The notes under the pieces were generated by a model. That model did no database searches. It had not been told where the DNA came from and was given only the letters and a program-made list of their open reading frames with translations. 64,000 nt of DNA from Alphaproteobacteria bacterium (GTDB lineage: Bacteria; Pseudomonadota; Alphaproteobacteria; SMXQ01). The stretch lies in NCBI GenBank assembly GCA_004356985.1, contig SMXQ01000078.1, forward strand, positions 593-64,592, given 5' to 3'. Each line of letters opens with the position of its first letter. Position 1 is the stretch's first letter. This document shows, in pieces, positions 1 to 57,751 of the stretch. The position numbers and the translations under genes are program-made.

Positions 1-2105
1 TAGAACAGGTTCAGCTCGCGAATGCCGCGGAACACCGGGAACCATTGACCGAACAAGGTCTGTGGCCACAACACCCGCAGCACCATGTGGAACAGGCCGT
101 AGCAGAATAGCCACATCGGCCCGACCACCAAGAAGATGACGCGCCAGCTTTCCTTGCCCTCGAAACGCATGTACCCGACCAGGAAAAGCGCCAGTGCCGG
201 GATCAGCCCGATGACATGGGAAGCCCCGATATAGAACACACACCAGAAGAAATACCGGGCCGCCCGGGTGTAGATGACCCGGGACGAGAGATCCCCGTAA
301 TCGGCCTGGATATCGAAATGGATATCGTCGCCGGCAGCCGTCATCTGGCCGGCCACCGCTTGATCCCCTGGTTTCCTCTCGGCGGGTGCCATCAAGAGGT
401 TGGTCAGGATCACCAGGCCGGTCGCCACCACGCCGAACCATGCCACGGCCTGCGGCTCAAGCCGCGTCGCCAATTCCCATTCGGCGGAATAGATGGCGGC
501 ATAGAGAAAGATCCCGAAAATCAGAACCGTGAACCCGAGATCCGGATTGCGGAGGTAATCCCGTTGCACGGCAAATCGGCGCCCGCCCCGTGGCGCCTTA
601 CTCCTTTGCCGGTAGCCCGTGTAAAGGGGCCACATCACGCTGATCAGCGTGATGGAGAGGATAATGATGACCACCGGGCGGGACAGCCATTCGAATCCCC
701 AGCGGGAGATCGAGATGAAGAGATAATTCTCGATCAAACCGCCAAGGACGAAGCCGAGGATGATGGGCGGCCGGGGCCAGCGGAACCGCTTCATCACCCA
801 GCCCAAGAAGCCAAATATCATCAGTGTGTACAGATCGCCCCAGTCGCGGCTCCCCTGGAAGGCGCCGAGGAAGGTCATGGACAGAACCAGCGGCACCAAG
901 ATACCCACCCGGATCATGGCGATCCGTGCGAGTTGGCCGGCAAAGGCAAAACAGATGCCCGCACCGAGGATGTTGGCCAGCGCCACCGACCACACCATGG
1001 TGTAGGTCAGGTCGAGCTGTTCGGTGAGCATCTTCGGCCCCGGAACGATGCCATGAATCAGGAAGGCCCCCAGCAGCAGCGCCATGGATGCCGAACCCGG
1101 CACACCGAAGGCAATGGTGGGCACCAGGGCACCGCCCTCCTTGGCGTTGTTGGAGCTTTCCGAAGCAATGACGCCGCGCACATCGCCTTTGCCGAAACTT
1201 TTCGCGGCGCCCTTCTCGGTGCGCGCGGCATGGCCGTAAGCGACCCAATCGATCACCGAGGCGCCGAGCCCCGGGATCGAGCCCATGACCGATCCGATCA
1301 GCGCGCAACGGAGGACCAGGAACCAGTTCTCGAAGACGTCCTTCACCCCTTCAAGCTGGCCACGCGCGTTGATATTTTTGGTATCGCCGGCGATGGTCTT
1401 GCGCGTGATGGCCAGGTCCGCGAGTTCCGGGATGGCAAAGATTCCCAATGCGAAAGGCACCAGCGGCACACCGTCCCAGAGATACATGGAATCGAAGGTC
1501 CAGCGCAGGGTGCCGCCTTCCTGATCGTTGCCGGCGGTCGCCACCAGAAGGCCCAACGCCGCGGCAATCAGACCCTTGATCGGGGCGCTTCCGGACAGAA
1601 CCGCCACCAGCGACAGCCCGAAGATACAGATGGCGAGCATCTCCGGTTCGGAAAAGGACACCATGAAGGGGCGGAGAATGGGCAGGCTTACCCCCAGCAG
1701 CAATGCGCCAAATAACCCACCGATCACCGAAGACGTGAACGCGGCCCCGAAAGCCCGGCTCGCCTCGCCGCGCCGCGCCATGGGATAACCGTCAAGAATG
1801 GTCGCCGCCGAACCGACGGTGCCCGGCACGCCGAACAGGACCGCCGGAATGGTATCCGAGGTGACGGTGACCGAGCCAAGGCCCAGCATCATGGCGATGG
1901 CGGAATAGGGATCCAGCGCGTAGGTGAAGGGAAGAAGCAGCGAAAGGCCGACAATGCCGCCGAGACCCGGGATGACGCCGACAACCAACCCCATTAGGAC
2001 GCCGGCGAAGAGGAACCCGAGCCGCGTTGGGTCGGCCAAGATGACGGCGGCCTGGCCCGCCATGGCGAACATTTCGCTGAAACTGACCGTCGTCGTCAGA
2101 TCCAT
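1..2105 (-). CDS. tctA: TctA-family tripartite tricarboxylate transporter permease with a C-terminal hydrophobic extension. 3' end runs off the window start; >700 codons are open.
   Basis: Manual translation of the minus strand from ATG at 2105 gives MDLTTTVSFSEMFAMAGQAAVILADPTRLGFLFAGVLMGLVVGVIPGLGG..., a typical TctA/DUF112 N-terminus. The frame stays open to position 1. It is absent from the ORF track because the track lists only complete ORFs. The plus-strand ORF 216..1715 is its antisense artefact. Confidence 0.8.
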   Translation of the reverse strand, partial: MDLTTTVSFSEMFAMAGQAAVILADPTRLGFLFAGVLMGLVVGVIPGLGGIVGLSLLLPFTYALDPYSAIAMMLGLGSVTVTSDTIPAVLFGVPGTVGSAATILDGYPMARRGEASRAFGAAFTSSVIGGLFGALLLGVSLPILRPFMVSFSEPEMLAICIFGLSLVAVLSGSAPIKGLIAAALGLLVATAGNDQEGGTLRWTFDSMYLWDGVPLVPFALGIFAIPELADLAITRKTIAGDTKNINARGQLEGVKDVFENWFLVLRCALIGSVMGSIPGLGASVIDWVAYGHAARTEKGAAKSFGKGDVRGVIASESSNNAKEGGALVPTIAFGVPGSASMALLLGAFLIHGIVPGPKMLTEQLDLTYTMVWSVALANILGAGICFAFAGQLARIAMIRVGILVPLVLSMTFLGAFQGSRDWGDLYTLMIFGFLGWVMKRFRWPRPPIILGFVLGGLIENYLFISISRWGFEWLSRPVVIIILSITLISVMWPLYTGYRQRSKAPRGGRRFAVQRDYLRNPDLGFTVLIFGIFLYAAIYSAEWELATRLEPQAVAWFGVVATGLVILTNLLMAPAERKPGDQAVAGQMTAAGDDIHFDIQADYGDLSSRVIYTRAARYFFWCVFYIGASHVIGLIPALALFLVGYMRFEGKESWRVIFLVVGPMWLFCYGLFHMVLRVLWPQTLFGQWFPVFRGIRELNLF

Positions 2106-4748: not shown

Positions 4749-6539
4749 CTAGTAAACCCGTTCCTTGGGCGGAAAGGTCTCGACGTCGTCGGTGAGCGTG
4801 TTGAGGTGCACCGGACGATAGGCGAGACGCGTGTCATGGGCGCCGTCCAGGTAAACCACCGTGTGCTTCATCCAGTTCTCGTCATCGCGGTCGGGATGGT
4901 CCTCGTGGGCATGGGCGCCGCGGCTTTCCTTGCGCGCCTCGGCGCAATGGAGCGTCGCCACCGCTTGGCTCATCAGGTTTTCCAGCTCCAACGCTTCCAC
5001 CAGGTCGGAATTCCAGATCATCGAGCGGTCTTTGATCCCCATGTCGGCGAGTTGCTCGGCGCAGGCATCGATCAGCCGCACGCCCTCGGCCAACACCTCG
5101 GAGGTGCGGAAGACGGCGCAGTTGCTTTGCATGATGCGCTGCATGTCGTCGCGGATGCGGGCCACCGGGGTCGCCCCCTTGGCGTTGCGGACCTGGTCGA
5201 GATGGGCGATCGCCTCATCGCCGGCGCCCGAGGGCGGGGTGATCGCCGGACCGCCCGGCTTCACCAATTCGGCGGCCCTGACCGCCGCCGCCCGCCCGAA
5301 GACGATGATATCGAGAAGCGAGTTGCAGCCCAGCCGGTTGGCCCCATGGACCGAAACGCAAGCCGCCTCGCCGATGGCCATGAGGCCGGGCACCACGCGG
5401 TCGGGGTCGTCGGCGGTGGGGTCGATGGCCTCGCCGTGATAATTGGTGGGGATGCCGCCCATGTTGTAATGCACGGTGGGCAGCACCGGGATGGGCTCCT
5501 TGGTGACATCGATGCCGGCGAAAATCTGCGCCGTCTCCGATATTCCCGGCAAGCGTTCGGCCAGGAGGTCCTGGTCGAGATGCTCGAGATGGAGGTGGAT
5601 ATAGTCCTTATTGGGCCCGAGCCCGCGGCCTTCGCGGATTTCCACCGTCATGGCCCGGCTGACCACGTCCCGCGAGGCGAGATCCTTGACCGTGGGCGCG
5701 TAACGCTCCATGAAGCGCTCGCCCTCGGAATTGGTGACATAACCCCCTTCGCCCCGCGCCCCTTCGGTGATGAGGCAGCCCGAGCCGTAAATGCCGGTGG
5801 GGTGGAACTGGACGAATTCCATGTCCTGGAGGGGCAGGCCGGCCCGCAGCACCATGGCGTTGCCGTCGCCGGTGCAGGTATGGGCCGAGGTGCAGGATAA
5901 ATAAGCCCGGCCGTAGCCCCCGGTGGCCAGCACCGTCATCGGCGCGATGAAGCGGTGGACGGTGCCGTCTTCCAGGTTCCAGGCCATGACGCCGATGGCC
6001 GCGCCGTCCTCGGCCCTGATCAGGTCGAGGGCGAAATATTCCACGAAGAACCGCGCCTTGTGCTTGAGCGCCTGTTGGTAAAGGGTGTGGAGAATGGCGT
6101 GGCCGGTGCGGTCGGCGGCGGCGCAGGCGCGATGGGCGAGTTTCTCGCCGTAATTGACGGTGTGGCCGCCGAACGGCCGCTGGTAGATCTTGCCTTCGTC
6201 GGTGCGCGAGAACGGCACCCCGAAATGTTCGAGCTCGGTGATCGCCGAGATGGCGTTGCGCACCATGAATTCGATGGCGTCCTGGTCGCCCAGCCAGTCC
6301 GAGCCCTTGACCGTGTCATACATGTGAAAACGCCAATCGTCGGGCTCCAGATTGCCGAACGACGCGCCGACGCCGCCCTGGGCGGCGACCGTATGACTGC
6401 GGGTCGGGAAGACCTTGGTGATGCACGCGGTATCCAGCCCCGCCGCCGTCATGCCCAGGGTCGCGCGCAGGCCGGCGCCGCCGGCGCCGACGACGATGAC
6501 GTCGAAATGATGGTCGATGACTTGATAGGCCGCGGTCAT
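4749..6539 (-). CDS. sdhA: Succinate dehydrogenase flavoprotein subunit.
   Basis: 596 aa. N-terminal FAD-binding motif [14 protein letters not shown] and overall SdhA/FrdA similarity. Confidence 0.95.
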
Positions 6540-6541
6540 GA

Positions 6542-6934
6542 CTACGGCCCCAGGGCGATGCGCAGGACCGAGAGGATGGAGACCAAGGCGCAGAGCGCCG
6601 CGCCCCCCTTGACGGCGATGATGAGGGTGATTTTCGCGGCTTGGTTATGGACGTAGTCTTCGATCACCTCTGCCAGGCCCAACTGCAGATGATGGAAGCC
6701 GGCCGCCAGCAACGCGATCATCATCACCGGCGCGATCGGTCCGCGCAGCCAGGCCACCACCTCGCCATGGCCGGCGCCGGTCAGCGCCGCCAGGGAGGCG
6801 ACGAACCAGAAGACCAGGGGAACCAAGGCAAGCGCGGTCAGCCGCTGGGCCCACCAATGGGCGGCCCCTTCCCTGGCCGAACCGAGCCCGCCCAGACGGC
6901 GGAATCGGCTTCCGAAGGCCGTCGGGCCGTTCAT
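6542..6934 (-). CDS. sdhD: Succinate dehydrogenase hydrophobic membrane anchor subunit.
   Basis: About 130-aa 3-TM protein starting MNGPTAFGS. The ORF-track entry 6542..7201 is an upstream over-extension. Its start overlaps the sdhC stop in an ATGA at 6931-6934. Confidence 0.8.
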
Positions 6935-7329
6935 GGGAGGCCGCCAAGACCGCCCGCGCCCACCACCCAGGCGGCGCCGGTCAGCGCCAAAGAAGCCAGC
7001 ACCACGCACCAGCCGGTCAGGCGCGCGACGGTCAGGTCGAACCCCATGCCGATGTCCCAGAACAAATGCCGGATGCCGTTGCAGAGGTGATAGAACAACG
7101 CCCAGGTGAACCCCACCAAGACCAGCCAGCCGAGCCACGACCCGGCGACCGCCCGGGCGCCGTTGAACCATTGGGGCCCCGCCGCGGCGGCGGCCAACCA
7201 ATAAACCAGAAGCAGCGCACCGAGCCCGAGGGCGACCCCCGTCATGCGGTGAAGGATGGAAAGAACGGAAGTGAACTGGGGCCGGTAAACTTGCAGATGG
7301 GGGGATAGCGGGCGGTCGTCTTGAGCCAT
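6931..7329 (-). CDS. sdhC: Succinate dehydrogenase cytochrome b556 subunit.
   Basis: 132 aa with the MAQDDRPLSPHLQVYRPQ...SILHRMTG SdhC signature. Confidence 0.9.
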   Translation of the reverse strand: MAQDDRPLSPHLQVYRPQFTSVLSILHRMTGVALGLGALLLVYWLAAAAAGPQWFNGARAVAGSWLGWLVLVGFTWALFYHLCNGIRHLFWDIGMGFDLTVARLTGWCVVLASLALTGAAWVVGAGGLGGLP

Positions 7330-7595
7330 GGAAGGGCCTCGGTCAGGGGCCGGGCCACCACATGTTACGCCACGCGCGCACCCGTTTCAGGGCCCCGGTT
7401 TAGACCCTGGCCCGCGGCAAGTCAACGACTGCAAACGCGCGCGCCCGGCGGGTCGGGGAGCCATCGGCGGGCCGCTTGCGGGGGCCCCGGCAAGCGGCGA
7501 AACCGGGCGCGGCGGGTCGGGTTTCCGCGACCGTGGCCGATCCAGGGTCGGCGCCATGGGCCCCGGTCCGGAATATGCCAGGGAATCAGAGCTTT

Positions 7596-7740
7596 ACACC
7601 GGAAGTTGTTACTTATTGTTTACCATCCTGTGGATAAAATTGTGAATAAACTGTGTGCACCTTGTGAGTAAATAACAATTTTATGCACAAGAAATGTCAT
7701 TATTACTTGAATTTTTACTTGCGATATTTGCCAGGCAGGG
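7596..7740. promoter_or_regulatory. AT-rich (about 28% GC) segment with a DnaA-box cluster, upstream of sdhC. DUE-like, DnaA-binding or sdh promoter region.
   Basis: TGTGGATAA at 7628-7636 is the perfect complement of TTATCCACA. TGTGAATAA at 7640-7648 and TTATGCACA at 7680-7688 are one-mismatch boxes. GC drops sharply against the 67% background. Confidence 0.5.
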
Positions 7741-8450
7741 TGATTATTCCCCCGGTACGTGGGAGTACCGGGTCCAAAACCGGGTCCAAGGTGAGGAGGC
7801 TCCTCCGGGTTTCTTCAATTGGTCCGGATTTGGGTTCCGGGGGCTGGACATTCAGGCCGGCTTCGGCCGGGCGGATGAAAGGCCAGGCATCGGGGGCGAC
7901 TCTTTCTACGGGAGGAGTTTCGCGAGAAAGCGGCCTTTACGGGCCGGTCGCACCCGGGCGGGGGGAATGGTTTGACCCGCCGAGCCGGTGTTTCCTGGTC
8001 CGCGTGTCTCCCCAAGGGCAGGCGGGCCGTTCCGGGGCTCCCGTAAGGGAGGCCCGGGTTCCAGGCGGGTCATTACGGGGGCAACTCTGCATTGATTCGT
8101 CCCTCTCCGCCGAAAGGGCAACTTTTCGTCGGGGCACTCCGGGAGGAGACTTTCGGGCCGGGGGCAACCTCGGGGAAGCGGGGAAACCCAAGCTTCCAAT
8201 GGGAACGGGAAAGACCGCCGCGGTAATATACTCTTCCCTTCGTTGGGCGCCGCAGCCCCCTCGGGGGCACTGACCGCCGCGGCGGGTGTCGCTTCTCTCC
8301 CTGGGGATGCGATGATTGCCTGGGGTGGTCGGCAGGATGCCTGTCGGTCTCATGTGCCGGGAGCAGCTCTCGCTCCCGGGGCGTCAGGTCCGTCCTTCGC
8401 GGGACAATTGTACAGGGTCCTTGGTCCTTGTGCGCCTGGCGCCCCTTGTC
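7740..8450. other. GC-rich non-coding segment of about 700 nt with dense hairpin potential; candidate structured RNA or long sdh leader.
   Basis: No ORF of credible composition on either strand. Perfect 8-bp hairpin CCCGGTAC-GTGGGA-GTACCGGG at 7750-7771. UUCG-tetraloop hairpin CCGGC-TTCG-GCCGG at about 7856-7869. Partial internal repeats (GGGAGGAG...TTTCG...GGGCC at about 7900 and about 8140). No match recalled to RNase P, tmRNA, SRP or 6S RNA. Confidence 0.3.
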
Positions 8451-8459
8451 TATCCAATA

Positions 8460-8468
8460 CTTATCCAC
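8460..8468. promoter_or_regulatory. Second perfect DnaA box TTATCCACA.
   Basis: Read directly, about 830 bp from the first box cluster, just 3' of the citE-like gene. Confidence 0.4.
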
Positions 8469-8615
8469 AAGGCAACTGAAATTTGCCGGCACCGGTGGTT
8501 CGCCGCTGGGGCGCTTGCGGGCCAAATTGAACCGATGTGGCCCGGAGATGCTCTTGGCACGCCGGGTCCCGGCGCCGGAGAAAGCGCGCCGGGCCAAGAC
8601 CGGCCGGACCGGCGT

Positions 8616-9512
8616 TCAGGCGGTTGGCTCGCCCTCCAGGGCGGCGATGGCAGCGGCGAAATCGACCACCCGTTGGGCCTCGGCGGCGTGCAGCGCCTCC
8701 ACCATGCGCCCGTCGAGGACGGCGACGTGTTGCCCCTTCCCCGCCGCCTCGGCGAAGGCCGCGATGATGGCCTTGGCCTCGCTGATCGCCGCCGCCGACG
8801 GCGCGAAGGCGGCATTGGCGGGAGCGATCTGGCGCGGGTGGATGACCTGCTTGCCGTCGAACCCGAGGCCGCGGCCCTGGGCGCAGGCGGCGGCGAAGCC
8901 CGCATCGTCGGTGAAAGCGGGATAGACCGCGTCGATGGCGCCGAGCCCATGGGCCCGGGCGGCAAGCAGGCTGCGTTCCAGGGCGTAGAGCAAATTGGTC
9001 CGCGCGCCGTCGATCTCGGCGTGCAATTCCTTGGCGAGATCCTCGAGCCCCATGGCGAACAGGACGAGGCGGGAATGGGCGGCGGCGATCTCGGGGGCGC
9101 AGAGGACCGCCCGGGCGGTTTCCACCATGGCCCAGAGCCGCGCGCCGGCGCCTTCGGCGTCGAGCAGGTCGCCGGCGGCGCGCACTTGGTCGGGGCCGGC
9201 GACCTTGGGCAACACCACCGCGTGGACACCCGACGCGGCGGCGGCGCGGAGGTCGGCCTCCGCCCAGGGGGTGCCCATGGCGTTCACCCGGACGACGATT
9301 TCGCGCCGCCCGAAGCCGCCCGCGGCGATGGCCGCCGAGACCTGGGCGCGGGCCGCCTCCTTGGCGTCGGGCGCGACGGAATCTTCCAGATCGAAGATCA
9401 GCACGTCGGCCGCCAGGGTCTTCGCTTTTTCATGGGCCCGCGCGTTGGTCCCGGGCATGTAGAGACAACTGCGCCGGGGCCGCGCCGCCCCCGTCTCGGT
9501 GAACTCCGCCAT
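8616..9512 (-). CDS. HpcH/HpaI aldolase / citrate lyase beta subunit (CitE)-like lyase; malyl-CoA or citryl-CoA lyase family.
   Basis: ORF 8616..9614. Probable start is MAEFTETGA... at 9512 after a GGAGGGAGCA RBS. CitE-like regions ...LYMPGTNARA...DLEDSVAP.... Confidence 0.8.
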   Translation of the reverse strand: MAEFTETGAARPRRSCLYMPGTNARAHEKAKTLAADVLIFDLEDSVAPDAKEAARAQVSAAIAAGGFGRREIVVRVNAMGTPWAEADLRAAAASGVHAVVLPKVAGPDQVRAAGDLLDAEGAGARLWAMVETARAVLCAPEIAAAHSRLVLFAMGLEDLAKELHAEIDGARTNLLYALERSLLAARAHGLGAIDAVYPAFTDDAGFAAACAQGRGLGFDGKQVIHPRQIAPANAAFAPSAAAISEAKAIIAAFAEAAGKGQHVAVLDGRMVEALHAAEAQRVVDFAAAIAALEGEPTA

Positions 9513-9697
9513 TGCTCCCTCCGGGTTGCCGGCCCGCCTCGACCGGCCGCTCGGGCAAATTCCCGGCGAGACTACGGGCCCGGAAGATGGCGTGCAAGGG
9601 CCGTCCCGCGGCAACCGCCCCAGGCCCGGGTTGTGTCGCGCCCAGGCCTGGGATATGACACCGGGAGCGTTGCCAACGGGGGCCCGCGCGAAGGGCG

Positions 9698-10425: not shown

Positions 10426-10494
10426 GCGCGGCGCAATTACCTAAATAGTAATCATATATATAAAATGATTATATTTTAGGCAATTGCGCCGCGC
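10426..10494. promoter_or_regulatory. 69-bp imperfect palindrome with GC-clamped arms and an AT-rich core, between lysE and the cyn operon. Bidirectional terminator and/or operator.
   Basis: GCGCGGCGCAATTACCTAAATAGTAATCAT ATATATAAA ATGATTATATTTTAGGCAATTGCGCCGCGC. About 30 of 35 arm positions pair. It lies in a locally AT-rich intergenic stretch (10430-10600). Confidence 0.45.
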
Positions 10495-10663
10495 ATGAGG
10501 GGGCAATAGGGCCCCCGGAAGAGGCGGCGGAATCTTTATAACATATTGAATAATAATATAGAATTTCCCTATATCGGGAAGTTAGGGGCGGTTGGCACGG
10601 CCTTTGCGAATGTGCCGTGGATTGCGAAAATTCTCGTATTTCCGCCAGCCAGGAGTGATTTCA

Positions 10664-15904: not shown

Positions 15905-16825
15905 TAACGAAGCCTTCTGGCTAATACCGGACGTTGGCATTATTTCTGGTATTGACCAAGGCTGTTGAAAAACTATGTCATTGAAGACCTGAGCGGAACA
16001 ATTGAACCCAGGGCAAGAACCAAGTGAATCATTCTCGCCCAAATGGCCCAATGCGCGAATCTCTCTTGCGTTCCAAAGCTATCGATTTAGTTTTTCAACA
16101 GCCTCGGTCATAAGCGGACTTTTAATCGGTTCAGTAGCTCCCCAATTCGATTGTTCCAGTGGCGAGCAATAAAGATTTTTCTTTATCTGATTTCGCTTTG
16201 TAAACGGCCTTAATAATGGCGAAATAGGAATTTCCTCTGCCACCAGAGCACGGTGGGACATATCCCTTTCCCCAAGCGCGATTGTCTGCTTCGATAAAAC
16301 TACCCTTGGGTAGTTTGTCTGACAAACCAGGAACAGAAGGTAACGTGGCTGGATTCGCAGCGCCTATCCAAAATCCGATTTTTCCGTGCCCGCCATCGTA
16401 ACTTAATGGGCGATAATCGCTATCGTTAAACTCCACAATTATTGCATTAGTGCCGGAAGGAATATTATCGACGATCAGAGCGGGTGTGGCCCCGTGTCCA
16501 TCTTGGCTGGGACATTGCTGACCATCCGGGATAGTTTTTCCATCCCAAGCAGGATCAGCAAACGCAATCTTTAATTTCGGTAAATTTTCCGAAACTGCCT
16601 TGTACTCGGATGCTTCTATCTCTCCTACGGTGAGAGCCATAAGGCCTGATGCTAGGGTGAATACAGCTAGGACTGATAGCATTCTCAAAGACATAGCACG
16701 AATCCTTCTTCTTCCCCATATTGTCCCGGAGTACAGATTAACCCCGCTAGTTCATGAAATTCAAATAAGAATTAATTTAGCGAGTAGTGGCGAACTAATT
16801 TTTTGAACTTATGTCCGCTCATAGC
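15760..16825. other. Low-GC (about 40%) island of about 1.05 kb between asd and leuB; a horizontally acquired remnant with no mobility genes.
   Basis: Abrupt compositional shift at both edges. Holds the ankyrin fragment, about 230 nt of AT-rich spacer and a PEBP-like gene with its own AT-rich promoter. Confidence 0.6.
16131..16694 (-). CDS. Secreted PEBP-like (YbhB/YbcL family) protein with a signal peptide.
   Basis: 187 aa. Signal peptide MSLRMLSVLAVFTLASGLMALT. Pattern ...ALIVDNIPSGTNAIIVEFNDSDYRP...GHGKIGFWIG...GYVPPCSGGRGNSYFAI... resembles the YbhB/YbcL PEBP signature (D-x-DAP, G-Y-x-G-P-x-P). GAAGGA RBS. Atypical codon usage. Confidence 0.55.
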   Translation of the reverse strand: MSLRMLSVLAVFTLASGLMALTVGEIEASEYKAVSENLPKLKIAFADPAWDGKTIPDGQQCPSQDGHGATPALIVDNIPSGTNAIIVEFNDSDYRPLSYDGGHGKIGFWIGAANPATLPSVPGLSDKLPKGSFIEADNRAWGKGYVPPCSGGRGNSYFAIIKAVYKAKSDKEKSLLLATGTIELGSY

Positions 16826-46615: not shown

Positions 46616-47995
46616 TTAGTTTCGGTACGCGGCAAGGCCACCCAGGTCGGGAAGCGTCCTAAGGTCACGGCAAAACGCAAGCAGCCCGGAGATCGAATCC
46701 TCGTCCATTCCCGCGTATGCCAGATTGGCCCTGAACTTGCCGACGATGTCGGCATCGGTCATGGGTTCGCGGGTCCCGCCGCGAAGCCAGGGCTGGTTTT
46801 CCTCGACCAATGTGCCGTCCTTGAGGCGGGCCAGGATGTGGCCGGTGTAATTGACCGGGTATTCGTTGGCAGGGTCGACCTGGTAGGTGATGCGCCGGGC
46901 CAGGTCCAGGACGGCGGCATCGGCGACGCGCGTTTCGGTGAACTGGGCGAGGCCGGCATCGCCGTCGATCAGCCCTACGGCGATGCAATAGGGGCCCGAG
47001 AACTTGGCGCCGTAGGCCGATGGCGGGCGATGCTTGATGGCGAGCGGTTCCCACAACCTGTGCACCGTGCCTTCACCGACCTTGCAGGTCATGGAGTCGA
47101 TATCCTCGGCTTTGATTCCGGCCTTGCCCATGCGCACCGCGCAATCCACGTAGGGCTGGCACATGGTGCCGCAGGCATAGGGCTTGAACGACAGGCGCCC
47201 GGCCTCCCAGCGGCTGCCCAGCGCGCCGGTGAGCGGCTCGAATTCGGCCTCGATGGAAGGGGCGAAGGCGGTATAGAAGCCGTGTTCGCCCTCGAACACG
47301 CTCCGCGGCCCGGCGAACCCGGCCTCGGCCATCCCCGCCGCGCGAATCCCCGCCTGGGCCGCCCAGCCGGCATGCATGCGCTTGGTCCAGGATCCGTCGG
47401 CGAGGTATTCGATGATGCCCGACGCGCAAGACCCGGCGAGGCCGAAGGCCCGCACCAGGGCCCCTTGGTCGAGCCCCAGGGTGACCCCCGCCGCCGCCGC
47501 CGCGCCCATGGCGCCGATCACGGCGGTGGGATGGAAACCCGCGGCATGGATTCCCTTGCCCGCGACCTGGCCCATGCGGCACATCACTTCGATGCCCGCC
47601 GCCATGCCGGCGAACGCCCGGGCGCCGGAAAGGCCGCGGCTCTCGGCAAGGGCCAGGACCGCCGGCACCACCACGGCGCCCGAATGCACCGGACAGCCTT
47701 CATAGGTGTTGTCGAAATCCTCGCCATGGGCGGCGGTGCCGTTGAGCATCGCCGCCGAGGCCGCGTCCATGCCGTCGGCGCCGAGCCCCAAGGCGGTCGC
47801 CCCGCCGGCGCCGCGTTCCCAGCCCTTGGCCAAGGCGGCGACGTAATCGGTCCCCCGCGCCGCATAGGCCAGGCCGACGGTGTCGATCAGGGTGTGGGTG
47901 ACGCCGAGGACCGCGTCTTCGCTAAGCGCATGGGCATCGAGCCCGGCGAGCCAGGCGGCAAGGGTTTCCGATACGGTTGCCATGGCTTCCCTCAC
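46616..47995 (-). CDS. MmgE/PrpD-family protein (2-methylcitrate dehydratase family), paralogue A.
   Basis: 459 aa with MmgE/PrpD N- and C-terminal domain patterns. Confidence 0.8.
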   Translation of the reverse strand: MREAMATVSETLAAWLAGLDAHALSEDAVLGVTHTLIDTVGLAYAARGTDYVAALAKGWERGAGGATALGLGADGMDAASAAMLNGTAAHGEDFDNTYEGCPVHSGAVVVPAVLALAESRGLSGARAFAGMAAGIEVMCRMGQVAGKGIHAAGFHPTAVIGAMGAAAAAGVTLGLDQGALVRAFGLAGSCASGIIEYLADGSWTKRMHAGWAAQAGIRAAGMAEAGFAGPRSVFEGEHGFYTAFAPSIEAEFEPLTGALGSRWEAGRLSFKPYACGTMCQPYVDCAVRMGKAGIKAEDIDSMTCKVGEGTVHRLWEPLAIKHRPPSAYGAKFSGPYCIAVGLIDGDAGLAQFTETRVADAAVLDLARRITYQVDPANEYPVNYTGHILARLKDGTLVEENQPWLRGGTREPMTDADIVGKFRANLAYAGMDEDSISGLLAFCRDLRTLPDLGGLAAYRN

Positions 47996-49401
47996 CCGGT
48001 CTGGATGGCCCGGGCGAGATCGCCCGCATCATCCAAATCGACCACGCCCCGGGCGGCGTCGATCAGCGCCGACGTCCGCGCGGGATCGAGAATGCCGGCG
48101 ACGCAGGCGGCGGTTTTCTGTTCGAGATCGTCATCGGTCATCGGCTTGTCGGGCCCGCCCCGGTAGCGTTCGTCCGCCTCCTGTACCAGGGTCTCCCCGG
48201 ATTTCAATTCCACCTCGATGCGCGACCGGATCACGTCCATGCCCTGGGATTCGATGGCCGCATCGAGGATGCAGGTCACCCGGCCCTGAAGGTCCTGCAT
48301 GGCCGCGCCCTGGACGAATTGGTCGGTGAACTCGGCACGGCCGGCGCGGCGCGCGATGACCATCATCGACAACAGCGCCGCCATGGAAAACTTGGCCTGG
48401 AGGTGGTTCTTGGCGACCGTGTACCGGATGGGGTTGAGGATGTTGGAGCCGGCGAAGAAATCGATCTTCTTCACGTCCCCCGGCTTGACATCGTTTTCGG
48501 TCACCAATTTCAATAAAGCATCCATGGACTGGTGGGTGAGGATGCCCGATGGGTAGGGTTTGATGGAAATTCCGGGATCGACCATGGACCAGGTCCTGCC
48601 GAAACCCTGGTCGAGCTTGTCCCGGTAAACGCCGCCGCCCATGACCTCCATGAACCCCCAGGGCCCGTCCAGCGCGGCGGGATCGGCGGTGAAGCCGCGA
48701 TCCGCCAAAAGCGCCGCCGTCACCCCGTTCTCCGATGCCCGGCCCACGTGCAAAGGCTTGGTCATGGTGCCGAAATTGCACCGCAGGCCGGCGCCGAAGC
48801 TCGCCGCCATGCCGAAAGCGTGGCGCAATTTATCGCCCCCGAGGCCGGCCAGCTTGGCCGCCGCCGCCATGGCGCCGAAGGTGCCCACCGTGGCCGAGGA
48901 ATGAAAGCCCTTGCGGTAATGGTCGCTCGCCATCCATTCGGAGATTTTGCTCTCCACCTCGATGCCGGCGACGAAGGCGGTGAGGAAGTCGCGGCCACTG
49001 ATCTTTCCCAGCTTCTGGACGACCGTGAGCGCGGCGGTCAACGGCGGGATGGTGGGATGGGTCAGAAGCCCGTAAATATGCCGGGGATCGCGGGAAACCT
49101 GGGTATCGTCCCAGTCATGGGCATGACCGGCGGTGCCCAGCACGCGCGCGGCCAGCGCCGCCGGCACCTTGGCCGCACCCCGGCCGAGCACCAGGGCATC
49201 GGCCCGCCCGCCCTGGTCAACCGCGTCCGCGGCCAGGATGCGTACCGATTCCTCGGCCCCGCCGGCGACAAACAGGCCGAGACCGTCCAGCACGCAGCGC
49301 CGGGCTATGGTGAGCACGTCGGCGGGCAGATCTTCGAAGCGCACGGCCTCGATGAATTGGGCGGCGTCTTCGGTAACGTGGCCGGGTTCGTTGGTTGCCA
49401 T
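47992..49401 (-). CDS. MmgE/PrpD-family protein, paralogue B.
   Basis: ORF 47992..49482. Start MATNEPGHVTEDAAQFIEAVRF at 49401 after a GAGG RBS. Tandem with paralogue A (stop/start overlap 47992-47995). Confidence 0.8.
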   Translation of the reverse strand: MATNEPGHVTEDAAQFIEAVRFEDLPADVLTIARRCVLDGLGLFVAGGAEESVRILAADAVDQGGRADALVLGRGAAKVPAALAARVLGTAGHAHDWDDTQVSRDPRHIYGLLTHPTIPPLTAALTVVQKLGKISGRDFLTAFVAGIEVESKISEWMASDHYRKGFHSSATVGTFGAMAAAAKLAGLGGDKLRHAFGMAASFGAGLRCNFGTMTKPLHVGRASENGVTAALLADRGFTADPAALDGPWGFMEVMGGGVYRDKLDQGFGRTWSMVDPGISIKPYPSGILTHQSMDALLKLVTENDVKPGDVKKIDFFAGSNILNPIRYTVAKNHLQAKFSMAALLSMMVIARRAGRAEFTDQFVQGAAMQDLQGRVTCILDAAIESQGMDVIRSRIEVELKSGETLVQEADERYRGGPDKPMTDDDLEQKTAACVAGILDPARTSALIDAARGVVDLDDAGDLARAIQTG

Positions 49402-49543
49402 GGAGAACCTCGTGACTGACTGAACGCAAAAGCGCCCGAGAAGAAAACAAACGGCGCGCCATTGCGCAACAGAAATAAGCACCCGCCACGGCGCGCCAGA
49501 TTAAGCCAGGCGCGCATCGCGGCGGCGCCCGGCCCGGCCCAAC

Positions 49544-52537: not shown

Positions 52538-53263
52538 TCAGAAATCGCGCAGCAGGCGGCCATAGCCCGCGATGGAATCATCGACCCCGGAGCGGCGCAG
52601 CGCCTGCCAGATGATGGCCTGGATGGGCTGCACCACGGTCACGCCGAACTCCTTTTCGAGGACGTCTATGGCGCCGACCATGGCCCAGTGGGGGCAGGAG
52701 TAATAGATGGTGTCGACGTCGGGGAATTTGTCCATGATTTCGCGCCCCAGCGCCGGGGCCACCTCGTCGGGGACCATGCCGAGCTCGATGAACTTGGCCT
52801 CCACCCGGACGCAGCCCTGGGGGTCGAGCCCGAATTCGCGCATGTAGCCCATGTGGCGCTCGTCGTGGGATTCATCGTAGGGCTGGACGATGCCCACCTT
52901 GTTGCAGCCCAGCGTTTTGAAGGCGTCGCGCTGGGACGAGGCCGAGGTGCTGATGGGGATGCCGACCTCTTTTTCGGTCTCGGCGATCAGCACGTCGATA
53001 TTGTCGAAGCCGCGGCTGACGTTGATGGGCAGGCCGCCGAAGACCAGGATATCGACCCCCGCCCGGGCCATGATCTTGGCCGCCTTAAGGCTCGCGTCGT
53101 AGGACCGGTCGACCTCTTCCTCGGTGCGCTCCACCAGGGGCAGGGTATGGACTACCAGGGTCACGCCATCGGGCACGATCTTGTAAAACTCGTAAGGGAA
53201 TACCTCCGTTGCCGAAGGCGGCGACGTATAGCCGATCCTGGCGCGGTGACCGTACATGGGCAT
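52538..53263 (-). CDS. Arylmalonate decarboxylase/maleate isomerase-family (Asp/Glu/hydantoin racemase superfamily) protein, paralogue 1, Cys-containing.
   Basis: 241 aa. Aligns with Bordetella AMDase as recalled: RIGYTSPP vs IGMIVPP, GGLPINVSRG vs MGTSLSFYRG, YYSCPHW vs LLSCGG, GYGRLLRDF vs GYGRLFDES. Confidence 0.75.
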   Translation of the reverse strand: MPMYGHRARIGYTSPPSATEVFPYEFYKIVPDGVTLVVHTLPLVERTEEEVDRSYDASLKAAKIMARAGVDILVFGGLPINVSRGFDNIDVLIAETEKEVGIPISTSASSQRDAFKTLGCNKVGIVQPYDESHDERHMGYMREFGLDPQGCVRVEAKFIELGMVPDEVAPALGREIMDKFPDVDTIYYSCPHWAMVGAIDVLEKEFGVTVVQPIQAIIWQALRRSGVDDSIAGYGRLLRDF

Positions 53264-53329
53264 GGCTGCATCCTCTTCTTTGGCGTTTCATGGAAAGCCC
53301 GCGGCGGCTTTGCCGGACGGGCCGGAACC

Positions 53330-54118
53330 CTAGATCTCGGGCATTAATCCTTCTTCCCGCAGGAAATCAAGGACCAGGGCATCGAACCCGGCGGGGTCTT
53401 CGATCATGCAGGCGTGGCCGGCGCCAGGCAATACTTCATGCCGCGCTTGGGGGATCAGCGAAGCGGTTTCCGCGCCCCGGGGCCGGGCGCCGTCGAATTC
53501 GCCGTTGATGATCAGGGTCGGCAAGGGGTAGGCGGCGAGGTGAGGCCGCAGGTCCGCCGCCGCCAGCGCCTCGAAGGTCCGGATGATGGCCGCGGGATGG
53601 TGGCGCCGGTCGCGCTCGGCGAACCCGGCGAACAGGTATTTACCCAGGACCGAGGCGGCGAACCCGTCGGTCACGCCGTAGTCCATGTGGGCCCGGCGGT
53701 AGGGGGAGAATTGCTCTTCCCGGTATCCGGTGATCCGCCGCGACATGTCCTGGGGGCCCGAATTGCCGCCCACCTGGATCACCGCCCGGAAGCGGTCGGG
53801 GAACAGGGCGCCCAGCATCAGCGCCGTCTTGGAGCCGATGGAGCATCCCATGACCACGGCCGGCCCAAGGCCGAGGTCGTCCATGACGCCGAGCACGTCG
53901 CGGCAGATGTCCTCCAGGGTGAACGGCGTGGTCACCTTTTCGCTGCGTCCCCAGCCGCGAAGATCGACCGAGACCACCGTGAACCAGGTCGAGAAATGGG
54001 CCGCCTGGTACAGCCACAGCGTATTGTCGAAGGGAATGGCATGGATCAGCACCAGGGGCGGCCCGGCGCCGGTGACCTCGAAATGGACGGCGATGGAGTT
54101 GGCGTGGCTTTTCGGCAT
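53330..54118 (-). CDS. Alpha/beta hydrolase.
   Basis: ORF 53330..54232. Probable start MPKSHANSIAVHFEVTGAGPPLVLIHAI at 54118. Nucleophile elbow GCSIG. The upstream 114 nt of the track ORF is the tandem-repeat region. Confidence 0.8.
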   Translation of the reverse strand: MPKSHANSIAVHFEVTGAGPPLVLIHAIPFDNTLWLYQAAHFSTWFTVVSVDLRGWGRSEKVTTPFTLEDICRDVLGVMDDLGLGPAVVMGCSIGSKTALMLGALFPDRFRAVIQVGGNSGPQDMSRRITGYREEQFSPYRRAHMDYGVTDGFAASVLGKYLFAGFAERDRRHHPAAIIRTFEALAAADLRPHLAAYPLPTLIINGEFDGARPRGAETASLIPQARHEVLPGAGHACMIEDPAGFDALVLDFLREEGLMPEI

Positions 54119-54130
54119 GTTCGGCCCCTC

Positions 54131-54210
54131 CCCTTTCCCGGCCCTTTCCCGGCCCTTTCCAGGGCCTTGCCCGGGCCTTTCCAGGGCCTTTCCAGGGCCT
54201 TGCCCGGGCC
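54131..54210. repeat. About seven tandem copies of an 11-nt unit (CGGGCCTTTCC / AGGGCCTT[T/G]CC) in the divergent promoter between the alpha/beta hydrolase and the tctC-like gene.
   Basis: Read directly. The period is about one helical turn. It sits 10-90 nt upstream of the hydrolase start. Confidence 0.6.
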
Positions 54211-54336
54211 CGGCCGCCGGGCGCGGCGTCATTGATTATAGATTCGCTTGGAAGCGGCGTCCTTTTTCGATTAGCCTTGCCAGGGAATTAAAATTACCAC
54301 GCGCATCAAAGCGCCACCAACATTGGGGAGGCTTCC

Positions 54337-55458
54337 ATGATCACCACCCGAATCTTTTTGCGCCTAGGCGCCGGCGTGCTCGCCCTGGCCGCGGCCGGGA
54401 CCGCCAATGCCGACGCGCTCAGCGATTTTTACAAAGGCAAGCGCCTGACCATGTTCGTCGGTTCCGGGGTCGGCGGCGGCTACGACACCTATTCCAGGAC
54501 CCTCGCCCGGCATTACAACAAATACGTCCCCGGCAAGCCGAGGATGCTGGTCAAGAACATGCCGGGCGCCGGCGGCCTGCGGGTCACCAATTACATGTAC
54601 AACAAGGCCAAGCGCGACGGCTCGGTCATCGCCTCGACCTTCAACACCATGATGCTGGAGCCCCTGATCGGCAACCGGGGCGCCAAGTTCGACGTCTTCA
54701 AGTTCAATTGGCTGGGATCCATCGGCAAATTGCAGGCGGTCTGCGTCACCTGGCACACCAGCCCCATCAAGACCCTGGCCGACGCCAAGGGCAAGGTTCT
54801 CACCGTCTCGGCCACCGGCGCCACCGGCAATTCGGCGAAGATGCCGCGCATCTTCAACTGGGCCGTGGGCACCAAGTTCAAGGTGATCCAGGGTTATTCC
54901 ACCTCGGGCTCGCGCCTGGCCCTGGAACGCGGCGAGGTCGACGGCATCTGCGGGTTGGGTTACTCGACCCTGCTGGCCTCGAACCCCGACTGGATCGCCA
55001 AGAAAAAACTCAACTTCCTCGCCCAGATCGGCCTTTACAAGCATCCCAAGCTGGCCCAGGTGCCGATGATCCTGCAGGATATCAAGGATGAGAGAACGCG
55101 CAAGATTGTCGAGTTGATCCTCATCCAGCAGGAACCGGGCCGCCCCTATATCGCCCCCCCGGGGGTTCCCGCCGAGCGCGTCAAGGTCCTGACGTCGGCC
55201 TTCAAATCCGCCATCGAGGATCCCGCCTTCCTGGCCGACGCCAAGCGCCTCAAGCTCGAGATCACCTATCTGGGCCCCAAGACCATCCGCGCCCTGATGA
55301 CCCGCGCCTACGCCAACCCAAGGGACATCGTCGAGGGCGCGGCCAAGCTGGTCGGCCGTCCCGCCAAGGGCGTGGTGACCAAGTGTTCCAAGTACACCAA
55401 GTCGGCCAAGTGGTGCCGCAAGAAAAAGAAGAAAAAGAAGAAAAAGAAGGCGTCCTAA
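54337..55458 (+). CDS. tctC: Bug/TctC-family periplasmic tricarboxylate-binding receptor with a C-terminal Cys-containing poly-lysine tail.
   Basis: Signal peptide MITTRIFLRLGAGVLALAAAGTANA. TctC/Bug fold pattern. Tail ...KCSKYTKSAKWCRKKKKKKKKKKAS. Confidence 0.8.
   Translation: MITTRIFLRLGAGVLALAAAGTANADALSDFYKGKRLTMFVGSGVGGGYDTYSRTLARHYNKYVPGKPRMLVKNMPGAGGLRVTNYMYNKAKRDGSVIASTFNTMMLEPLIGNRGAKFDVFKFNWLGSIGKLQAVCVTWHTSPIKTLADAKGKVLTVSATGATGNSAKMPRIFNWAVGTKFKVIQGYSTSGSRLALERGEVDGICGLGYSTLLASNPDWIAKKKLNFLAQIGLYKHPKLAQVPMILQDIKDERTRKIVELILIQQEPGRPYIAPPGVPAERVKVLTSAFKSAIEDPAFLADAKRLKLEITYLGPKTIRALMTRAYANPRDIVEGAAKLVGRPAKGVVTKCSKYTKSAKWCRKKKKKKKKKKAS
55420..55449. repeat. Codon-level simple repeat (AAGAAAAAG)x3+ encoding the poly-Lys tail.
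   Basis: Read directly; 30 nt of AAG/AAA codons. Confidence 0.6.
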
Positions 55459-55542
55459 GGCGCAGCACCAAGCAAAACCCCCGGTTCCGGCCGGGGGTTT
55501 TTTCTGTCGCTCTTCCGTCGCCGCGTCGCCGCGCGGGGCGTA

Positions 55543-56262
55543 TCAGAATTCGCGGAGCAAGCGGCCGAAGCCTGCGATGGGCTCGGTGATGCCGGCGGTC
55601 CGAAGCGCCTTCCAGACGATCGCCTGCTGCGACGTCATCACCGACACGCCCAATTCCGCCTCGATCTCGTCGATGGCATGGGCGATCGCCCAATGGGCGC
55701 TTGCCAGGTGGATGCAGTCGGCCTCGGGGTTTTCCCGCATCACCTGGCGGGCGGCGGTCAAGGCGAGCTCGCAGGGGATTTGGCCGACTTGGTGGTCGGC
55801 GAAATCGAGGCCGATGACGCCCGCCGCCTCGACCCCCATGTTGCGGATCGACTGTTTGTGGCGCGCGTTGTCGGCCGGCTCGTAACAATGCACCTGGGCC
55901 ACCTTCTTGGCGCCCAGCGCCGCCAGCGCCTCGGTCTGGGCCTGGGTCGAGGTCACCACCTTGGTGCCGATCTCGGCGGCCAGGGTGGCGCAGATCGCCG
56001 CCAGGTTCCCGACCCCCTGGGATTGGTTGATGGGGTTGCCGCCCAGCACCACCACGTCGGCGCCGGCGCGCGCCATGTAACGGGCGGCCTCGAGGCTGGC
56101 GGCGTGGCTCGCCGCGATCTCCGCCGGCGCCCGGGTGCGGACCTCCAGGGTCTTGATCAGCAGCGTCACGCCCGCCGGCACCATCTTGTAGAACTCGTAA
56201 CAAAAGGTCTCCGTCACGTAAGGCGGTGAGCAATAACCGATGCGCGCGCGGTGTCCGTACAT
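55543..56262 (-). CDS. AMDase/maleate-isomerase-family protein, paralogue 2, Ser variant.
   Basis: Start MYGHRARIGYCSPP at 56262; track ORF 55543..56967 over-extends. Motif IHLASAHW sits where paralogues 1 and 5 have S/GCPHW. Confidence 0.75.
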   Translation of the reverse strand: MYGHRARIGYCSPPYVTETFCYEFYKMVPAGVTLLIKTLEVRTRAPAEIAASHAASLEAARYMARAGADVVVLGGNPINQSQGVGNLAAICATLAAEIGTKVVTSTQAQTEALAALGAKKVAQVHCYEPADNARHKQSIRNMGVEAAGVIGLDFADHQVGQIPCELALTAARQVMRENPEADCIHLASAHWAIAHAIDEIEAELGVSVMTSQQAIVWKALRTAGITEPIAGFGRLLREF

Positions 56263-56276
56263 GGCCCGAACGCGCC

Positions 56277-57002
56277 CTAGAATTCCCTGAAAAGGCGCCC
56301 GAATCCTTCGATGGGCTCGGTGATGCCGGCGGTGCGGAAGGCCTTCCAGACGATGGCTTGCTGCGACGTCATGACCGAGACCCCCAATTCCGCCTCGATC
56401 CGGTCGATGAATGGGGCGGTGGCCCAATGGGCGGAGCCCAGATGGATGGTGTCGGCATCGGGGTTTTCCTCCTTCACCCGGCGCGACAGGGTCAACGCGA
56501 GTTCGCCGTCGAGGCCGCCGATATGCTGGAAGTCGGACCCGCAGGCAAGGACGCCGGCCGGCTCGAAGCCTAGGTTGCGCATGGAATTGGCGTGGCGTTC
56601 TTTCTCCGATTCCTCGTAGCAAAAGACCTGGGCGACCTTTTTGGCGCCGAGACAGGTCAGCGCCTCCCTCTGGGCCTCGGTGGAGGTGATCACCTTGGTG
56701 CCGATCTTGGCGGCGAGCGCGTCGGTCACGTCGGCGATATTCTCCATGCCCAGGCTCTGGTTGATGGGATTGCCGCCCAAAACCACCACGTCGGCGCCGG
56801 CATCCGCCATGTATTGGGCGGCGATCAGGCTGCGCTGATGGCTGGCCGCTACCTCTTCCTTGGTCCGGGTCCTGATCTCGAGGGTGGTGATCAAGAGCGT
56901 CACCCCTTCGGGCGCCATCATGTAGAACTCTTGGGGGAAGGTCTCGGTCACGAAGGGCGGCGAGCAATAGCCGATGCGGGCGCGGGATCCAAGCATGGTC
57001 AT
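56277..57002 (-). CDS. AMDase/maleate-isomerase-family protein, paralogue 3, Ser variant.
   Basis: Start MTMLGSRARIGYCSPP at 57002. Motif IHLGSAHW. Confidence 0.75.
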   Translation of the reverse strand: MTMLGSRARIGYCSPPFVTETFPQEFYMMAPEGVTLLITTLEIRTRTKEEVAASHQRSLIAAQYMADAGADVVVLGGNPINQSLGMENIADVTDALAAKIGTKVITSTEAQREALTCLGAKKVAQVFCYEESEKERHANSMRNLGFEPAGVLACGSDFQHIGGLDGELALTLSRRVKEENPDADTIHLGSAHWATAPFIDRIEAELGVSVMTSQQAIVWKAFRTAGITEPIEGFGRLFREF

Positions 57003-57025
57003 GGGGCGTTCTCTTTCTCTCGGCT

Positions 57026-57751
57026 TCAGAATTCGCGGAACAGGCGGCCGAAGCCTTCGATGGGCTCGGTGATGCCGGCGGTCCGGAGCGCCTTCCAGAC
57101 GATGGCCTGCTGGGAGTTCATGACCGAAACATCGAGCTCGTTTTCGATCTTGTCGATGGCGTGGGCGGTGGGCCAATGGGCGGAGGCGAGATGGATGCAA
57201 TCGGCGTCGGGGTAGGCGTCCTTGAGCCGCTTGGCGATCTCGAACGCGGCATCGGTGGGAATCTTGCCGTAGCCCAAAAGCTGGTATCCCTCCAACGAGG
57301 CGACGCCGACCGATTCCACGCCCATGTTCTCCATCTGCTGGCGGTGGCGGTCGTCGTGCTGGGAACCCGAGGCGTGGGCCGAAGCCACCTTCTTGACGCC
57401 GAGCTTTTCCATGGCCTCAAGCTGGCACAGCGTCGAGGCCACCACCGAGGTTCCGATCTCGGCCGCCAAGTCGGCGCAAATGCCGGGCAGGTTTTCGATG
57501 CCGCGCGATTGGTTGACGGGATTGCCGCCGAGAACCACCACGTCGGCCCCGGCCCCGGCCATGTACTTGGCCGCCTCAATGGAGCGGTCGTGGCTGCCGT
57601 CGAAGGCTTGGCTGTTGTATTCCAGCCCCACCTCGAGGGTGGTCAGCAGCAGCGAAACGCCGTCGGGCACCATCTTGTAGAACTCATAGACGAAGACCTC
57701 GGTGACCACCGGCGGCGAGCAATAGCCGATGCGAGCGCGGTGTCCGTACAT
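57026..57751 (-). CDS. AMDase/maleate-isomerase-family protein, paralogue 4, Ser variant.
   Basis: 241 aa; MYGHRARIGYCSPP; motif IHLASAHW. Confidence 0.75.
   Translation of the reverse strand: MYGHRARIGYCSPPVVTEVFVYEFYKMVPDGVSLLLTTLEVGLEYNSQAFDGSHDRSIEAAKYMAGAGADVVVLGGNPVNQSRGIENLPGICADLAAEIGTSVVASTLCQLEAMEKLGVKKVASAHASGSQHDDRHRQQMENMGVESVGVASLEGYQLLGYGKIPTDAAFEIAKRLKDAYPDADCIHLASAHWPTAHAIDKIENELDVSVMNSQQAIVWKALRTAGITEPIEGFGRLFREF

Follow-up and report, generated by a model that had tools for sequence, protein, structure and literature searches.

The AT-rich island upstream of sdhCDAB is best read as a DnaA-responsive control module of a rightward RNA promoter, possibly with an added capacity to titrate DnaA, and we place the probability of this reading, which is drawn from comparison of sequences, at roughly 55%. 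The island lies in a gap of 1286 bp between sdhC and a citE-like gene, near the left end of the window (the whole 64-kb stretch of DNA that was analysed). The gap contains no called gene and holds two elements, a phased array of five predicted DnaA-binding sites and, directly to its right, a gene for a large structured RNA. The features of the locus, from left to right, are the following.

6931-7329, minus strand: sdhC, opening gene of sdhCDAB, transcribed away from the RNA gene
7397-7425, minus strand: conserved promoter motif of sdhC, reading GTTGACTTGCC-N-GGTCTAAAC, some 95 bp ahead of the gene
7629-7637, minus strand: DnaA box E, TTATCCACA, perfect consensus, the distal strong end of the array
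7641-7649, minus strand: DnaA box D, TTATTCACA, 12 bp from box E
7652-7660, minus strand: degenerate box C, TGTGTGCAC on the plus strand, 11 bp from D, a candidate low-affinity site
7663-7671, minus strand: degenerate box B, TGTGAGTAA on the plus strand and hence TTACTCACA on the minus strand, 11 bp from C
7681-7689, plus strand: DnaA box A, TTATGCACA followed by AGAAA, opposed to B-E and nearest to the promoter
7690-7718, plus strand: AT-rich spacer from box A to the -35, 29 bp, 21% GC, a candidate UP element
7719-7747, plus strand: predicted RNA promoter, with -35 TTGCGA (7719-7724), a 17-bp spacer and -10 GATTAT (7742-7747)
about 7753-8455, plus strand: structured non-coding RNA gene, about 700 nt, GC-rich, recognised by fold, covariation, promoter and terminator
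8284-8458, plus strand: RNA 3' domain (model R1), with a terminal stem 8378-8388/8434-8445 and a U-rich tail 8446-8455 (terminator)
8461-8469, plus strand: distal DnaA box, TTATCCACA, 6 nt past the terminator tail
8616-9614, minus strand: citE/HpcH-like lyase gene, convergent, at the right edge of the gap

Box cluster and base composition

Four matches to the DnaA-box consensus TTATNCACA occur in the window, whereas shuffled sequences contain 0.34 +/- 0.59 and no shuffle reached four, so that the preliminary description of this DNA was right to call the cluster unlikely by chance. Matches to TTATCCACA with one mismatch number eight against 3.95 expected, and 4/8 fall within 7629-8469. The four boxes that had been listed all exist, with every coordinate 1 nt too low; the perfect copy placed at 8460 is indeed present, on the plus strand at 8461-8469. 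The degenerate boxes at 7652-7660 and 7663-7671 had been overlooked, as had the RNA gene to the right.

No other 145-bp stretch of the window has a GC content as low as that of 7596-7740, which lies about 5.5 SD under the mean. Its GC content is 34.5% instead of the approximately 28% given earlier, and the background is 65.5% instead of 67%. Two further AT-rich intergenic islands, of 37-38% GC, lie at about 10436-10580, upstream of an NMT1-type ABC transporter and cyanase cluster, and at about 16670-16815, and such islands are recurrent in this GC-rich genome.

The distal box, about 780 bp from the array, is kept only in the window and in two other loci (L055 and L062, the latter being the long-read MAG contig CAVTBD010000002.1), and has no role in the promoter module that we propose. 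It sits between the RNA terminator and a hairpin, GGCAACTGAAATTTGCC at 8472-8490, which lies downstream of the convergent citE-like gene.

The structured RNA gene

The region 7753-8455 is a real structured RNA gene on the plus strand, previously undescribed. The plus strand folds with a minimum free energy of -393 kcal/mol (z -8.0) and the minus strand with -296 kcal/mol (z -2.1). RNAalifold returned helices rich in G-U pairs, with exchanges among A-U, G-U and G-C. In the 3' domain, compared over 35 sequences, 37 of the 51 pairs carry compensatory changes, and 92% of the cells are paired as against about 44% when the partners are slid; covariation is also seen in 19 of the 48 pairs of the 5' domain. 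The two domains are joined by a closing helix, in which the first ~20 nt have as their partner a segment that immediately precedes a conserved GGAGC hairpin of the 3' domain. Cognate strands of this helix have a mean energy of -22.0 kcal/mol and non-cognate strands -15.5 kcal/mol (0/2000 permutations as good), and it is this pairing that places the 5' end of the RNA near 7753. A terminator-like stem followed by a U tract is present in all homologues shown, the U tracts being clearer in the relatives than in the window.

The RNA measures 704 nt in the window and ranges among homologues from 243 nt (L009) to 931 nt (L032), and it therefore has a conserved core of about 245 nt, made of the 5' strand and the 3' domain, around an insert that varies in size and reaches about 690 nt. 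Searches of Rfam 15 gave no match at the gathering score in the window, none at E<=10 in 7300-8700 and none in five divergent homologues, and ARAGORN found no tRNA or tmRNA. Like the ornate bacterial RNAs GOLLD, ROOL, OLE and raiA, the RNA is of great length and stability, has many tetraloop hairpins and is supported by covariation. It differs from them in having no Rfam 15 match, in its restriction to Alphaproteobacteria and in its fixed position beside sdhCDAB.

Protein coding in the gap was considered and rejected, the open reading frames at 7683-8273 (plus strand), 7937-8353 and 8073-8597 (both minus strand) having no Pfam match. No gene was called there in six public assemblies. Variation among six near-identical assemblies amounts to 3 SNPs in 1.3 kb, too few to inform. 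Because a maoC-like gene fills the same gap in relatives, a maoC-like pseudogene was also tried as an explanation of the RNA region; tblastn shows no remnant of one, and six RNA-bearing loci hold both the RNA and maoC. The region thus combines the generic marks of a structured non-coding RNA, namely strand-specific stability, covariation, a predicted promoter and terminator of its own and no coding signal.

Conservation of the five-site array

The array was aligned across 36 lineages, anchored on box A (TTATGCACA plus AGAAA), the most conserved of the boxes. On the RNA strand, 9-mers that begin with TGTG start at -52, -40, -29 and -18 from box A, i.e. with spacings of 12, 11 and 11 bp, and the register of these four starts is held in about 30 of 34 lineages. 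The array therefore consists of one inverted box (A) and four phased ones (B-E). The two outer slots share the consensus TGTGGATAA, the exact complement of TTATCCACA: slot E in 27 lineages and slot D in 34, with an exact match in 15. At the inner slots TGTG alone is conserved, starting at -29 from box A in 30 lineages (slot C) and at -18 in 29 (slot B).

Box A is found in 36/36 lineages, including two (L063 and L015) that have no other box. Both box A and the outer slots D and E show a dip of information at position 5, as does TTATNCACA, and the perfect TTATCCACA recurs in most lineages. A DnaA-related function of the array is well supported, given a TTATNCACA profile with its degenerate fifth position and a register kept in about 36 lineages.

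In two lineages (L009 and L020) the phased array is kept without AT-richness. The L020 version, at 5230-5350 on the minus strand, is GC-rich and reads TGTGGGCAG / TGTGGGAAA / TGTGACCAG / TGTGGACAG, then TGTGCACA; its TGTGG repeats are retained, phased but degenerate, with no TTATNCACA match and no AT island. To the 3' side of this array lies a diverged RNA with a classic terminator, which our covariance model missed, so that the RNA family is wider than the model shows. About 45 bp from the array of the window, on the sdhC side, a CTGATTC block (7581-7588) contains GANTC, the CcrM methylation motif. This block is common to the window and to L001-L003, L006, L055 and L062, and is not promoter-like.

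The predicted RNA promoter

The distance between box A and the predicted RNA promoter is almost invariant. Counted from the first base of box A, the -35 element (TTGnnn) starts after 38 nt in 28/36 lineages and after 39 nt in 6/36, and hence 34/36 lineages hold the boxes at a nearly constant distance from the core promoter, as is expected of a DnaA-regulated promoter. In the comparative alignment the -35 is followed by a 17-bp spacer, a -10 of the form (C/G)AnCAT and, directly thereafter, the 5' helix of the RNA. The core hexamers are weak. A generic promoter scan of 7200-8800 reported nothing, the promoter lying below its threshold and being recovered only by the alignment, and the transcription start of the RNA gene is likewise predicted from conservation alone. 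With the promoter aligned downstream of box A, the boxes come to lie at about -65 to -125 from the predicted start, box A at about -73/-65 and boxes B, C, D and E at -91, -102, -113 and -125, respectively.

In the two lineages that retain only box A (L063 and L015) its distance from the promoter is unchanged, and box A at a fixed promoter distance is, as judged from the alignment, the minimal conserved unit of the locus. The composition of the 29-bp spacer is far less constant. Its GC content varies among homologues from 14% to 62%, with values of 48-62% in L127, L102, L131, L119, L107 and L009, and in L020 the AT island is absent altogether. AT-richness is not conserved. The segment that had been called DUE-like is better described as a box array plus an AT-rich, UP-element-like spacer upstream of the -35.

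Distribution and genomic context

A scan of 185,579 species genomes seeded with SdhC yielded 80 loci. In a subset of these (L001-3, L006-9, L014-16, L018, L024, L028, L032, L037, L055 and L062-64) boxes matching TTATNCACA occur in an AT-rich island located 190-600 bp ahead of sdhC. The DNA of 7626-8485 is 87% identical in L001 and 72-76% identical in L002, L003 and L006; in L055 and L062 the ends of this region are 72-86% identical, while SdhC itself is only about 60-68% identical there. A covariance model built on the 3' domain (8284-8458) matches only the strand antisense to sdhC, and among the SdhC-seeded loci it detects the RNA above the E-value cut-off only where boxes are present.

A second search made no use of sdhC or of the boxes and relied on a 17-nt RNA motif in metagenomes together with the covariance model. 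It recovered 22 more RNAs, 17 of which have exact TTATNCACA boxes in the expected place. In all of those with enough flanking sequence sdhC is divergent upstream, and maoC-like and/or citE-like genes are convergent downstream. About 40 alphaproteobacterial lineages thus combine the RNA, the array and a divergent sdhC. Where the RNA is missing the array is missing too, and the gap holds a 352-aa maoC-like gene or a short spacer. The element is absent from many close relatives in which the synteny is the same.

In most relatives, including most loci without the RNA, the space from the citE-like gene to sdhC is occupied by the 352-aa maoC-like dehydratase gene; RNA and maoC-like gene are both present in L009, L016, L018, L028, L032 and L037. 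The gene is absent from the clade of the window (the window, L001-3, L006, L055 and L062), which is reported as having the longest RNA. Elsewhere in the window, one neighbourhood (46616-49482 and 52538-57751) holds a pair of adjacent PrpD/MmgE paralogues and three Amdase-family (arylmalonate-decarboxylase-like) paralogues. An MFS transporter, a GntR regulator and an ornithine cyclodeaminase-like gene are found there too, and the whole is possibly a catabolic island. A 499-aa open reading frame at 216-1715 (plus strand) has no Pfam or NCBIfam match and may not be a real gene, since it failed the GC3 filter and a nested 93-aa frame (727-1005) passed.

Discussion

Both E. coli and B. subtilis are known to have clusters of DnaA boxes away from their origins, and a cluster of this kind acting at a promoter would, if our reading of the sequence is right, belong to a class already described. 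New in detail are the five-site phased architecture, its occurrence in many alphaproteobacterial lineages and a target RNA family that is absent from Rfam. To our knowledge no conserved non-origin DnaA-box cluster has been defined in Alphaproteobacteria, and we know of none anywhere that controls a structured RNA. Searches of the literature on DnaA boxes and sdhC, on structured RNAs of Rhodospirillales and on DnaA-controlled non-coding RNAs gave no description of this locus. DnaA is documented in Alphaproteobacteria as a dual-function protein, both initiator and transcription factor (PMC3193534).

The array invites comparison with several better-known systems. At DnaA-regulated promoters of Caulobacter crescentus and at the dnaA, nrdAB and mioC promoters of E. 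coli, boxes likewise occupy a defined position relative to a sigma-70-type promoter. Those promoters carry one or two boxes, whereas here five helically phased sites, one of them opposed, span about -65 to -125; moreover, the target is a large structured RNA rather than a protein gene, and its dependence on DnaA is putative. In the right half of E. coli oriC (R4-C1-I3-C2-C3), an outer consensus box nucleates weaker boxes at about 11-bp phasing, and R1 stands beside the DUE. Our array shares with it the outer consensus box, the run at about 11 bp and an opposed box next to an AT-rich tract, but lacks a conserved unwinding element, an origin context and a skew switch, and is lost or reduced in relatives.

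In oriC of E. coli, the combination of strong outer and weak inner phased sites leads to cooperative filling that depends on ATP-DnaA. It is possible that the present array works in a similar manner. DnaA would bind boxes E, D and A tightly, and ATP-DnaA would then fill the weak sites B and C cooperatively; with such filling, occupancy of the array would report the level of active initiator. The resulting DnaA complex would modulate RNA polymerase at the weak-hexamer promoter. Our guess as to the direction of this regulation is activation, since weak core hexamers fit an activated promoter, and production of the RNA would in this way be tied to the cycle of replication initiation. An array of this kind would inevitably soak up some DnaA as well.

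Regulation of the promoter may nevertheless not be the main role of the array, since its geometry also resembles that of an origin or of DnaA-regulatory loci. The most serious competitor, which we still regard as unlikely, is a DnaA-homeostasis locus of the datA, DARS or B. subtilis DBC type, which would titrate DnaA or alter its nucleotide state, and at which the divergent promoters would only supply negative supercoiling or be incidental. The locus offers five boxes, one of them opposed, plus a distal box 780 bp away, and the array lies between two outward-firing predicted promoters. B. subtilis has six clusters of DnaA boxes apart from oriC, which control the genes next to them and also hold back initiation (PMC3245932). 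These clusters are, like our array, intergenic, distant from the origin and situated at promoters of neighbouring genes, and the array could in the same way both regulate and titrate DnaA; it belongs to another phylum, is more compact and strictly phased, is tied to a single RNA gene and has been kept in many families. The core of E. coli DARS1 and DARS2 has a box opposed to a head-to-tail run as well (PMC6868365). A DARS core, with three boxes of which I and II are opposed across a 5-bp gap and box II is near consensus, is nonetheless not what is seen here, because the gap between A and B is 9 bp and the box beside A is the weakest. Conserved IHF or Fis sites are also missing. datA combines its box cluster with an essential IHF site and stimulates hydrolysis of DnaA-bound ATP; at our locus boxes are present, and a perfect IHF consensus, WATCAANNNNTTR, was read between B and A in L003 and L006 alone. 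Furthermore, the single box of L063 and L015 cannot form an oligomer, yet its promoter spacing is kept, and the array is never found without the RNA gene. We know of no DARS, an element that promotes release of ADP from ADP-DnaA, outside Gammaproteobacteria. Of the suggestions made in the preliminary description, a datA/DARS-type locus retains some standing, without the DARS core geometry, and a role in homeostasis could coexist with the promoter control that we favour.

Somewhat less probable again is that the phased TGTGG repeats are bound not by DnaA but by another transcription factor, e.g. a response regulator that recognises direct repeats. Direct repeats spaced by 11-12 bp are typical of OmpR/PhoB-type regulators and the repeats of the array have this spacing; slots B and C conserve nothing beyond TGTG, and in L020 the TGTGG repeats persist with no match to TTATNCACA. 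Such a factor would leave unexplained why slots E and D have precisely the DnaA consensus TGTGGATAA, why box A has the information profile of TTATNCACA with its dip at position 5 and why perfect copies of TTATCCACA occur in most lineages. Weak flanking sites beside strong ones are the norm in DnaA arrays such as E. coli oriC, and the pattern of the array, weak beside strong, fits DnaA.

The neighbourhood of sdhC suggests a different target, DnaA-dependent transcription of sdhCDAB, either alone or together with the RNA. The array is invariably flanked by the RNA gene on one side and sdhC on the other, the three always stay together, and a bidirectional control region would be plausible. We consider this improbable, and sdh probably the wrong target, for the following reasons. 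A promoter-like motif of its own precedes sdhC in loci with and without RNA and array, including very distant ones (e.g. L026 and Tistlia), and most relatives express sdh with no array at all. The array keeps a fixed distance to the RNA promoter, whereas that to the sdhC promoter ranges between about 100 and 500 bp, which makes the control of sdh that had been suggested for this site less likely than control of the RNA gene. In L055 (about 5565-5840) and L062 (about 5595-5900) a small open reading frame with a CxxC motif (ITYCRQCRW...), possibly of the Rdx/SelW type, is inserted between array and sdhC promoter, and the array is therefore not tied to that promoter. An effect of the RNA on sdhCDAB through base-pairing to the sdhC leader received no support from a crude comparison of cognate and non-cognate duplex energies (3043/5000 permutations as good), and this test thus offers no explanation for the strict linkage of RNA and sdhCDAB.

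An origin of replication, be it the chromosomal oriC or that of a secondary or integrated replicon, we hold to be very improbable. The cluster of five phased boxes (7629-7689) and one at 8461 would suit an oriC, as would the adjoining AT-rich tract and the outward transcription on both sides; box A, in its orientation to the AT tract, resembles R1 beside the DUE of E. coli oriC. A conserved AT-rich unwinding element with 13-mers or DnaA-trio repeats is lacking, however: reading the sequence by eye, we found only two consecutive trio-like triplets, and these are not conserved. The AT-rich tract is lost in L009, L107, L127 and L020, L063 and L015 have one box only, and close relatives of the same synteny have no element.

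The surroundings of the site argue against an origin as well. A check for dnaA, hemE and parAB, which had been recommended, found none of them within the 64-kb window, nor dnaN or gidAB, and no parS is present in the window even when 3 mismatches are allowed. The genes rplS, pgk-gap-tkt, leuBCD and asd are on the minus strand to the right of the site and would therefore be head-on to forks leaving it. The same holds for open reading frames read as rpsP in the preliminary description and for those that we take to be trmD, rimM and ffh. Minus-strand genes have a GC3 skew of +0.172 to the left of the site and +0.176 to its right, so that the skew check shows no change across the site, a test that is weak alone because the replication skew of the window is close to zero. 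Across loci, an origin between sdhAB and citE/maoC would be expected to shift their difference in GC3 skew by twice the replication skew; 25 loci that carry the element give a difference of -0.082 +/- 0.014, and 25 that lack it give -0.077 +/- 0.013 (p = 0.79). The earlier view that a chromosomal oriC is less likely, based on head-on genes, is accordingly upheld by rplS and reinforced by skew, parS and the non-conserved AT tract. In Azospirillum, a related alphaproteobacterium, the chromosomal oriC has been placed between yqfL and hemE (bioRxiv 10.64898/2026.09.14.751567). The suggestion of a secondary replicon or integrated element fares no better, since the flanks (citE-like gene and sdhCDAB) are ordinary, syntenic housekeeping chromosome, with no rep, par, integrase or tRNA genes at the locus. 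For origin-prediction tools the locus is a caution, a perfect-looking cluster of DnaA boxes with an AT-rich island that is here very probably not an origin.

Returning to the promoter module, one may speculate further, and only tentatively, as we think this stronger form of the model rather doubtful, that a phased array sensing ATP-DnaA switches on a large structured RNA that is locked beside sdhCDAB in many alphaproteobacterial families. If true, this would amount to a direct wire, made of RNA, by which the state of the initiator acts on the TCA cycle and the respiratory chain, or back on DnaA. The locus is an easily mutated cis-element, with five sites in fixed register to a predicted promoter. 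Together with the new RNA family, it allows a direct test, in these bacteria, of whether replication initiation and central metabolism are coupled, as has long been suspected.
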